From contig CAYFXC010000001.1 of assembly GCA_964347045.1 (NCBI GenBank), positions 187,256 to 251,255 of the forward strand: a stretch of 64,000 nt of DNA, given 5' to 3'. The number at the start of each line of letters is the position of its first letter. Position 1 is the first letter of the stretch. The position numbers and the translations under genes were made by a program. The DNA is from an uncultured archaeon. Its GTDB lineage: Archaea; Asgardarchaeota; Hermodarchaeia; Hermodarchaeales; Hermodarchaeaceae. The notes under the pieces are model-generated. The model did no database searches and was not told the DNA's origin. It saw only the letters and a program-made list of their open reading frames with translations. Below are positions 35,995 through 53,726 of the stretch, in pieces.

Positions 35995-36340
35995 GGACGG
36001 AAGCCCCGACGGTCGTCAACCCTCACTGATGCCGTACTCACCGCTAGGTCTCAGACCCGGATCTCGGAAGCATCAACAGTACAGGTTTACGCTGCTCCCT
36101 CCCGGGTCTCGCTGGGTTCACCTGATAAAGACGATTCAGCCCTTCCTACGAAAAGCCTACCGCCACCAGCGATCCTCCGAGGCGGATCGTCACTGCCTTG
36201 AACAGTGAGTCGTACAACAGGTCAGAAAGCCTAACGTCGGCATTCAGCCCGCCGTAGAGAGCATCTGCGGTACAGGGGAGCCTTAGCCAGCCCGTAGCGG
36301 TGCTGCGGGACTTCTAGCCCCCCGCCTAGGCTCACCGTCC
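35995..36340 (-). ncRNA. ffs: Archaeal SRP (7S) RNA with a 31-nt insertion in Alu helix 3
   Basis: Terminal helix GGACGG/CCGTCC; Alu GGGGG..TCCCC-TGTA-CCGC; helix 6 with GGAG; helix 8 GAGACCC-GGGA-GGG-AGCAG. Confidence 0.9.
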
Positions 36341-42731: not shown

Positions 42732-44037
42732 TTATAATTCGTCAAAAGTGTGAATGCGCATTTTCGCTGGTTTCTTAACAATATTACCCACTCGTACTCC
42801 GATTATTAATTCGATGCCGCGATTTTCTGCGATGTCAATAAGTCGTTGGGTCACAACGCCATCTAATATGAGGACTTTTGCTTTTTTGAGTTCTTGTAGT
42901 TCGTTTGCTAGCTCCCCAACATGAGTTTCTTTGAGTTGTTTGAAGTCATCATCCAAAATAACAGACATCATCGTCTGCTGAATTTTTTCAGCTGAGCTAA
43001 GGATGGGTTTTGGTAAACCCAAATCTTTTACCATAGGTTCGGGTTTTTTAGCCGGCTTTGTTCGCGTAGGAGGACGCGTCTTCTTAGGACGCGATTCCTT
43101 AGGTTTTTTGGCTGGAGCCCTACGAGTGCGCTTCTTTTCTTTTACTTTATCCGGCGTGGAGGGTGTTTTGCTTTTAGGTCTTCCAATAACTTGTACAGAT
43201 GGAACCTTATTTCGGAGGGCTTTTGTTACTTCTTTATGTGTTAATTCTTCGACTTCTCTTCCTGTTGGTGCACGTGCCACATAATCGACTTTAATAACTT
43301 GTGAGAGCTCTTTGAAAATCAGGTCTCCTCCACGATCTCCGTCTAAGAATGCAATAACGGTTTTATCCTTTGCAATGTCTGCAATTGATTTTGGAATCGA
43401 TGTTCCCTCGACGGCGACAGCATTTTTAACACCTGAGCGTAGAAGGGCGAGTACGTCAGCACGTCCTTCCACAATAATGATGGTGCTTGAGGTTTTTGCT
43501 TCTGGCCCAGCGGGAAGTTTTTCTTTCCCAAGTTTAATAATCTCTGCAGTACGTGCCTCTCGTAATACTGTATCTGTCATTTCTTGGGAATCAGGAGAAA
43601 TTTCTCCTTCCCAATCACGAAGGAGATCAACTGCACGATCAATGATTTGTTTACGCTTCTCTTCTCTGACATCCTCTACTTTTTCGAGACTGATTTTAGC
43701 AGCACACGGACCAACTCTATCAACTGTTTCAATTGCCGCTGCAAGAATTGCAGTTTCTGTTCTATCAAGACTACAAGGTATTGTGATGGTACCTTGTGAT
43801 TTTCCACTTTCAGTATGAAGTTCAACTTTTATTCGACCAATTCGCCCCGACTGTTGTAATTCCCTTAGGTCCAAATCTTCACCGATTACCCCTTCACATC
43901 TATGATATGAAGTGTAGGCCCTCTGTTTGACCAAATAGAGCACCTACCACATCGGGGGTTTCAACTACTCCATCTATTTCGATTTTTCCACGAATACAAT
44001 ATTTTGTGGTTCCAGTACTTTCCGCATTTGCTCCCAT
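42732..44037 (-). CDS. dnaG: Archaeal DnaG (exosome-associated primase-like), interrupted by a 28-nt BHB intron at 43886-43913
   Basis: Exon 1 [19 protein letters not shown]; exon 2 [32 protein letters not shown]; 1306-28=1278 nt, in frame. Confidence 0.93.
43886..43913 (-). other. Putative mRNA intron with bulge-helix-bulge splice motif
   Basis: GCCT/GGGT 4-bp helix, 3-nt bulges ACA and AAT, inner 9-bp hairpin CTTCATATC/GATGTGAAG. Confidence 0.85.
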
Positions 44038-44175: not shown

Positions 44176-44595
44176 TTAAAACTTTGTGCCTTTCGAAGGT
44201 TTGTCTGTTTGTTTTAGGCCTTCTATCACACGAACTCGCCAAGTAAAGGCTCGCTTAAGCTGATATCTTTCTCGATGAAGTATAGTCACACCACGACCTT
44301 CTAGCTGTTTAATTAAATGCCGTGTTAGTTGTCCTCCCCGTCTATCAAAATCAAATAAAATGAGCACGCGACGAGAATTTGATAGTTGATCTGCTAAACT
44401 AACTATATTATGTCCGGCCATAGCATATATTGGTCCTGTTAATCCTAGTCCACGTAGCGCTGTAATATCCTTAATACCTTCCACAACAATTGATATACCA
44501 TCATCAGAGAGTTCAGTTAATAATCGCAGCCCTCTTTCAAAACGCTCTTCTAATTTTTCCTGTTTCGATCGAGTCGCTTTTCGTTGTGGACACAT
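44176..44595 (-). CDS. Small TOPRIM domain protein (UPF0292-like)
   Basis: IVVEGIKD..ALR.LG, ILFDFDRRG. Confidence 0.88.
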   Translation of the reverse strand: MCPQRKATRSKQEKLEERFERGLRLLTELSDDGISIVVEGIKDITALRGLGLTGPIYAMAGHNIVSLADQLSNSRRVLILFDFDRRGGQLTRHLIKQLEGRGVTILHRERYQLKRAFTWRVRVIEGLKQTDKPSKGTKF

Positions 44596-52242: not shown

Positions 52243-52842
52243 TCATTTATTTGCAACAATATCGGCAGGTGATACAAGATAATAGGTTGTTTCTCCTTGC
52301 CGATCTAATACAGCCAGCATCAGTTTCTTGCGGTTTCGTTTCGCCTGTTTGCTAAATGCCTCTAGCTGTCCTACCTTCAGAGGTGATCCTTCTGAGATTG
52401 CGCAGACAAAGTATTTTGCTGTAGCTTCGTTGAGTTTTGCTCCCCGTGGGTAAACTCGAAACAATAATCCTTTCCCATATCCTGTTCGAACCACATATCC
52501 ACGGCTTCGTAAATCACTATAGACAAGAAAACGAGTCCAAAGCCCAGGACGGTTCTTCGCTAAGCGTTCAAGTAATGCCGAAAAATCAAGGATTTCGCCT
52601 TGTGCTTCGCTCACCTCAATCCGCTGGCGTCTCACTAACAATAAGGCTTCTTCCGGTTCAAGCGTTAACTTTTGTTCATCTTTCAATGTTCCATAATAGC
52701 CCGCTTCATATAATACGGGGGCATATTCACCTTTTATACTGACTTTTCCCCGTGTTAATATTGCCTGAATAGGTTCGTCGGGAAGCTGAGAGTGCTCTTC
52801 TTCTGACGAAGGTGGTTCCTGTTTCTTTTTTATCATTAACAT
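52243..52842 (-). CDS. endA: tRNA-splicing endonuclease subunit, probably structural beta
   Basis: EEALLL, VYSDLRSRGYVVRTG, FRVY, RKKLMLA, TTYY; catalytic KY/FG and His motifs not seen. Confidence 0.85.
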   Translation of the reverse strand: MLMIKKKQEPPSSEEEHSQLPDEPIQAILTRGKVSIKGEYAPVLYEAGYYGTLKDEQKLTLEPEEALLLVRRQRIEVSEAQGEILDFSALLERLAKNRPGLWTRFLVYSDLRSRGYVVRTGYGKGLLFRVYPRGAKLNEATAKYFVCAISEGSPLKVGQLEAFSKQAKRNRKKLMLAVLDRQGETTYYLVSPADIVANK

Positions 52843-53435: not shown

Positions 53436-53567
53436 CCCGGCGTAGCTCAACCTGGTAGAGCGTCTGGCTGTAGGTATACACCGCACCCTGAGCCACACGG
53501 CGATGACTCGGTGTCAACCAACGCAGATACCAGATGGTTCCTGGTTCAAATCCGGGCGCCGGGACCA
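53436..53567 (+). tRNA. tRNA-Tyr(GTA) with canonical 55-nt intron (53474-53528)
   Basis: C1-G72, TCTGG-CT-GTA-G^A-CCAGA; CTGT/GCAG BHB helix. Confidence 0.93.
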
Positions 53568-53618: not shown

Positions 53619-53726
53619 GCCCGTTTAGTGTAGCCAGGTCTATCATCTGGGACTGTCAAGGGTCTATGAAACTCATAGAGCTGCGGATCTCCTAGGACTC
53701 GGGTTCGAATCCCGGAACGGGCGCCA
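53619..53726 (+). tRNA. tRNA-Asp(GTC) with canonical 30-nt intron (53659-53688)
   Basis: TGGGA-CT-GTC-A^C-TCCTA; CTGT/GCGG BHB helix; G73-CCA. Confidence 0.93.

Follow-up and report, generated by a model that had tools for sequence, protein, structure and literature searches.

The window (the whole stretch of 64 000 nt that was analysed) carries on its minus strand a dnaG gene which is split into two pieces by an insert of 28 nt (43913..43886). Archaeal DnaG is an RNA-binding subunit of the exosome. The first piece, exon 1 (43914..44037, minus strand), is preceded by an AGGTGG Shine–Dalgarno-like motif 5 nt on the 5′ side of its ATG (44037) and provides 41 codons and the first base (C) of a leucine codon (MGANAES...GQTEGL + C). 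The second piece, exon 2 (42732..43885, minus strand), starts with the TC that completes this codon, proceeds through GGT GAA GAT in a frame different from that of exon 1 and contains 383 further codons (...HTFDEL) and a stop; the Toprim domain lies within it. When the frame of exon 1 is followed past the junction it reads HFIS and then encounters a TAG within the insert. The minus strand around the junction is GAG G-GCCT-AC^A-CTTCATATC-ATA-GATGTGAAG-GGGT-AA^T-C GGT GAA GAT, and removal of the 28 nt between the two carets gives an uninterrupted reading frame of 425 amino acids in which the motif GQTEGLLGED is restored, with ...GQTEGLLGEDLDLR... as the junction peptide.

Against the NCBIfam DnaG profile NF003108, exon 1 aligns over positions 1–30 (E = 1e-11) and exon 2 over positions 32–419 (E = 2e-135, 452 bits against a cut-off of 300). 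The two pieces are therefore contiguous in the family profile, and between them they match this archaeal DnaG equivalog over its full length. The genome, a MAG, is 89% complete; its 83 contigs total 2.58 Mb, and dnaG occurs in it once. Directly upstream of the gene, also on the minus strand, is an ORF of 139 amino acids (44176–44595 of the window) which looks Toprim-like by eye.

The insert and its flanks can be folded into a motif of the bulge–helix–bulge (BHB) type. The central helix has 4 bp and is formed by GCCU of exon 1 (43919–43916, minus strand) and GGGU of the insert (43891–43888), with the pairs G·U, C–G, C–G and U·G. Bulges of 3 nt each, AC^A (43915–43913) and AA^U (43887–43885), lie on opposite strands, and the inner hairpin comprises 9 bp (43912–43904 with 43900–43892) closed by a 3 nt loop (43903–43901). 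The 28 nt thus run from the third base of the first bulge through the hairpin, its loop and GGGU to the first two bases of the second bulge. These are the insert, helix, bulges and hairpin that the preliminary description of this DNA had reported, and we find each of them to be correct; RNAfold recovers the hairpin (z = −2.4). The same is true of its statement that cuts at the EndA position yield EGLLGED and an ORF of 425 residues, which proves to be contiguous in the DnaG profile. With regard to the outer helix, the single base pair described there (G–C) stands, but the additional pairing that it suggested between GGTCAAA and TTTGGACC is not conserved in relatives. As the outer helix has only 1 bp, the motif falls outside the strict hBHBh′ class, in which outer and inner helices have at least 2 bp each, and belongs to the relaxed HBh′ class. 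On the basis of the fold, the covariation described below and the spliced ORF, we annotate 43886..43913 (minus strand) as a putative HBh′-type BHB intron.

The 4 bp helix with two 3 nt bulges expected of an EndA substrate is present, and the sole motif-restoring solution at the dnaG locus is to cut each bulge after its second base. We note that a BHB shape is by itself common in a 64 kb AT-rich window: 16 motifs were counted, compared with 12.7 in shuffles, when a 4 bp helix, 3 nt bulges and an inner helix of at least 9 bp were specified and G–U pairs were allowed. The chance that a motif would cut at both of the repairing positions is roughly 1e-5 or less, calculated for one fixed position and length. 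The above-chance signal is the exact repair of frame and motif, its uniqueness at the locus and its conservation with covariation. No Rfam family overlaps the 28 nt insert.

Each of the 17 related genomes in which dnaG was matched (14 of the same genus and three of the same family) has an insert at the same site, as do nine independent metagenome contigs from unrelated samples. Members of the genus have a 28 nt insert, and in the sister genus its length is 29 or 31 nt. In an alignment of 18 sequences around the junction, 16 of them distinct, 96.9% of the pair cells are standard, compared with 39–55% when the partners are slid by 1–3 columns. Three hairpin pairs have changed on both sides (C–G to U–A, A–U to G–C and U–A to A–U). 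The central helix is paired in 100% of the cells across the 16 distinct sequences, with exchanges between G·U and G–C and between C–G and U·G that preserve pairing, and the loop of the insert is hypervariable, differing in almost every species. None of 500 shuffles reached the observed covariation score, although this test is inflated by the relatedness of the sequences. The structure has been maintained in evolution, as the covariation indicates.

The exonic substitutions in the same alignment all fall at synonymous positions, in two different frames, which places both exons under coding constraint; exon 1 is 71–92% identical across the relatives. The exonic strand of the central helix encodes Gly–Leu and is likewise under coding constraint. 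The codons GGC CUA C^UC, which hold this strand, the first bulge and the junction leucine, are nearly invariant, and their only change, GGC to GGU, preserves the pair. In intron-less Asgard dnaG genes the leucine at the junction position is encoded by many synonymous codons.

The genome contains two EndA-family genes. One lies in the window (52243..52842, minus strand) and encodes a structural, beta-like subunit of 199 amino acids; in the two-repeat EndA profile it corresponds to the N-terminal, structural half. The other, on a second contig (G000:C7; locus L045, 1222–1782), encodes a catalytic alpha subunit that matches the C-terminal, catalytic half and retains the Tyr/His/Lys triad. The latter aligns with the alpha subunit of Aeropyrum pernix (E = 6e-45) without a gap through the crenarchaeal L1/CSL loop; the loop-less EndA of Methanopyrus shows a 10-residue gap at this point of the alignment. 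Asgard EndA has been described as an (alpha-beta)2 enzyme with an L1 insert, which has been tied to broad specificity and cleavage of relaxed motifs (PMC5829648). An RtcB gene is also present, so the host has both RtcB and an EndA that is predicted, from its sequence and from PMC5829648, to accept relaxed motifs. Introns are abundant in its tRNA genes, 17 of 34 ARAGORN calls being interrupted. Two such genes, for Tyr (53436–53564, 129 nt) and Asp (53619–53723, 105 nt), are called by ARAGORN on the plus strand of the window and adjoin the gene for the beta-like EndA subunit. An archaeal SRP RNA match is found at 35998–36337 on the minus strand, with 340 nt against a model of 317 positions.

In our view, the 28 nt segment is with high probability an intron of the relaxed HBh′ BHB type that lies within the dnaG coding sequence and is spliced from the pre-mRNA, and the enzymes that excise it are very probably those with which the cell splices its tRNAs. 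From the fold, frame repair, covariation, copy number and enzyme genes observed here we infer that the dnaG pre-mRNA is cleaved and ligated as follows. The exonic GCCU would pair with the intronic GGGU, leaving two 3 nt bulges, and this helix would be stacked on the 9 bp hairpin of the intron. A two-subunit (alpha-beta)2 endonuclease would then cleave both bulges, each after its second base, and RtcB would join the exons (CUAC^UCGG) and probably circularize the 28-mer. The full DnaG of 425 amino acids would be produced from the spliced mRNA only, the unspliced message ending after 45 codons. With an outer helix of 1 bp, cleavage would depend on an enzyme of relaxed specificity, the specificity being that read from the EndA sequence. 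The preliminary description had interpreted the insert as a true mRNA intron, and each prediction of that reading which we tested at the sequence level held. The same-site inserts with compensatory changes that it proposed to look for in related MAGs occur in 17 of 17 genomes, with the three doubly changed pairs, and the intact dnaG paralogue that it named, together with exclusively unspliced transcripts, as grounds for refutation is absent, the genome having one dnaG. It also knew of no described dnaG intron. Our literature searches agree: they returned no publication of a dnaG intron, no paper combining dnaG with BHB introns and no paper on BHB introns in Asgard coding sequences. The mechanism proposed here is itself known from crenarchaeal cbf5 and from non-canonical tRNA introns.

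Other explanations of the split gene can be envisaged, each of them very improbable. One is that dnaG is truly split, giving an N-terminal peptide of 41–45 amino acids and a separately initiated C-terminal protein, or that it is a pseudogene. Public annotations list Hermod-type DnaG as truncated proteins of 329–411 amino acids, and in this genome a GTG is present 20 codons upstream in the frame of exon 2. However, the open stretch that precedes GED lacks a start codon in 11 of 18 genomes, and the break falls inside the invariant motif GQTEGLLG. The purely synonymous exon changes near the junction and the 71–92% identity of exon 1 argue against both splitting and decay. A pseudogene is moreover unlikely because dnaG is strongly conserved and single-copy, with no second dnaG in the genome. 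A split gene would also leave the conserved and co-varying BHB fold without a reason.

It is equally doubtful that the intervening RNA is removed by something other than EndA and RtcB, or that it acts as a regulatory hairpin and is removed only under certain conditions. Such a reading would accommodate the missing outer helix, but the cuts that repair the frame exactly follow the second base in each of the 3 nt bulges, across a 4 bp helix. Cutting after the second bulge base is the EndA rule given for cbf5 (PMC2738675), and the same rule fits unrelated inserts at two other dnaG sites, in cbf5 and in EF-2, as described below.

Programmed ribosomal frameshifting or translational bypassing, by which ribosomes would be carried over the 28 nt, appears slightly less probable again. 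In this genome the frame of exon 2 is open through the insert, but in 11 of 18 genomes, the same 11 that lack the start codon, a stop inside the insert closes it and few bases have both frames open. The insert lengths of 28, 29 and 31 nt leave a remainder of 1 on division by three in 16 genomes and of 2 in two, which does not correspond to a single direction of shift. Given the mixed lengths and the exon 2-frame stops, no common frameshift bridges the insert. We found no shift site with a consistent direction in a conserved window, and most genomes have stops of both frames within the insert. The insert varies in accordance with its base pairing and loop rather than with codon periodicity, and its translation would add about nine residues to the most conserved DnaG motif. 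Hopping over the insert was rejected, as there are no matching take-off and landing codons. Finally, an assembly or sequencing artefact is scarcely credible even in a MAG of 83 contigs, since the insert recurs, with sequence differences, in 17 other genomes and nine metagenome contigs from different studies and samples, and this agreement of independent assemblies excludes assembly error.

Our survey covered a sample of 372 Asgard genomes in which dnaG was matched, and 40 junctions were retrieved. The site described above, after GGCCUAC, is limited in this survey to the Hermodarchaeota family. At a second site (type B), 13 nt upstream and after GGN CAA, unrelated BHB inserts of 29–40 nt are found in other Asgard families (f3, f7, f9 and f26; loci L025, L028, L030, L048, L049, L061, L064–L066, L068 and L069). 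Several of these loci have near-duplicated 7-mers at both splice sites, for example GGCCAAT and GGCAAAT. At a third site (type C), about 50 nt upstream in GIVE^KPDVV, one genome (G139 of family f24; locus L060) has a 37 nt insert with a perfect GTAG/CTAC helix. In about twenty other sampled families dnaG is uninterrupted. Every Asgard dnaG insert that we found conforms to one rule, with a 4 bp helix, 3 nt bulges and predicted cuts that follow the second bulge base. Sixteen intron-bearing loci were tested, and at all of them the DnaG motif is restored by cuts consistent with a BHB; a strict search found a motif-restoring solution at 14 loci, and at 13 of these it was the only one. The type B and type C inserts resemble the Hermodarchaeota intron in gene, in geometry and in lying within the same 50 nt region, but differ from it in site and have unrelated sequences, and we regard them as separate introns.

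Two other genes of this genome are interrupted in a similar way. The cbf5 gene is split by a BHB insert of 41 nt (G000:C16:22651–22691, minus strand; L093, 1475–1515) with the elements CTGG AT^A ... CCAG AA^A, removal of which restores ...GIINLD^KPPGPTSHEVV. In relatives of the same genus the cbf5 profile matches start at position 36–40 or carry in-frame stops, and in a sister-genus genome (G015) the gene is continuous. In two relatives (G006:C30:47437–50070 and G011:C9:50012–52648) the two halves of the cbf5 profile, 4–174 and 167–322, are about 1.6 kb apart and lie in long open frames of 836–902 amino acids; this separation may reflect an intein or a large insertion. The second gene, an EF-2 paralogue, is split by an in-frame insert of 30 nt containing a UGA (G000:C1:88510–88539, minus strand; some 98.7 kb ahead of the window). 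Its BHB is clean (GAGG AA^A cgtct...agacg CCTC AA^T) and removal restores RG^ITI of the RGITI switch motif.

A genome-wide scan for BHB motifs that join ORFs gave 2835 matches, compared with 2943 in slid-pair controls, and its closure filter missed dnaG. When the scan was restricted to bulges of the form A.. and AA., 79 matches were obtained, compared with 44 and 58 in controls. Among these we regard only dnaG, cbf5 and the EF-2 paralogue as real. Ten further candidates were rejected on the basis of Pfam matches, as they corresponded to adjacent genes or gene starts.

The closest known system is the pre-mRNA intron of crenarchaeal cbf5, found in Desulfurococcales and Sulfolobales (Watanabe 2002, Yoshinari 2006 and Yokobori 2009, as described in PMC2738675). 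Like the dnaG intron, it is a short BHB intron in a coding sequence, with a mostly relaxed motif (PMC2738675), is cut between the second and third bulge bases, is conserved within its lineage with a variable interior and has been attributed to a hetero-oligomeric endonuclease of relaxed specificity. The present intron differs in its gene, dnaG, and in its phylum, being found in the Asgard group, in Hermodarchaeota. The crenarchaeal intron has been confirmed from cDNA in several species, whereas that of dnaG is predicted here from the DNA sequence. In Crenarchaeota the cbf5 intron interrupts the codon for the catalytic Asp (PMC2738675), whereas the cbf5 insert of the present genome is located elsewhere (INLD^KP). 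A second comparison is with the non-canonical HBh′ introns of archaeal tRNAs, which are cut by (alpha-beta)2 or epsilon2 EndA with specificity loops (PMC5829648, PMC3241643). The dnaG intron shares their 4 bp helix, 3 nt bulges, inner helix, weak outer helix and size range, but its host RNA is an mRNA without a tRNA body.

Crenarchaeal cbf5 is, in the literature that we searched, the only archaeal protein-coding sequence with confirmed splicing of the endonuclease type. If an Asgard lineage has a conserved intron in its single-copy dnaG, the mechanism would extend to the archaea closest to eukaryotes. Viewed alongside cbf5, the EF-2 paralogue and the additional dnaG sites, this intron suggests that splicing of mRNA by the tRNA machinery is not a curiosity of one gene. 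We lean towards the view that the dnaG intron is part of a wider, obligatory repertoire of EndA/RtcB mRNA splicing in Asgard archaea, with the 5′ end of dnaG as an intron hotspot. Three information-processing genes of one genome (dnaG, cbf5 and the EF-2 paralogue) would then need splicing, and BHB introns would have been gained in different Asgard families at three sites within about 50 nt of dnaG. If this is correct, tRNA-type introns can repeatedly colonize coding sequences in those prokaryotes that are most closely related to eukaryotes, and the expression of genes for RNA and DNA metabolism may be coupled to splicing capacity. The dnaG gene offers a compact substrate on which the proposal can be tested: its intron has 28 nt, the cut sites are defined and the cognate enzyme, of two subunits, is encoded nearby.

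Among about 55 public protein clusters of Hermod-type DnaG, all but one are truncated at the N-terminus (329–411 amino acids compared with about 425), which indicates that gene callers mis-annotate these genomes; the error is passed on to completeness and phylogenomic marker sets in which DnaG is included. The sole exception derives from a JGI contig of 1524 nt (Ga0395754_008471, data set 3300036486; here L104), which reads ...GAGGGCCTAC^TCGGTGAAGAT... and lacks exactly the 28 nt insert at the predicted junction (210–240). A homologue search restricted to the junction region yielded no further Hermod-type protein extending across the dnaG junction, and a literature search for the identifiers of the JGI sample and contig returned no paper. 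The contig has only about 70% DNA identity to the nearest genomes. A maximum-likelihood tree of DnaG exon 2 places it within the intron-bearing lineages, a position which would mean that it is cDNA or has lost the intron precisely. In an AU test, however, a sister position was not rejected (p = 0.23), and for this contig a cDNA origin or precise intron loss is therefore indistinguishable from primitive absence. It is suggestive of a spliced dnaG transcript and we regard it as a candidate for one, but it may instead be genomic DNA of an intron-free sister lineage. We also note that it contains one extra A in a homopolymer near its 3′ end (1140–1160), by which the frame is shifted.
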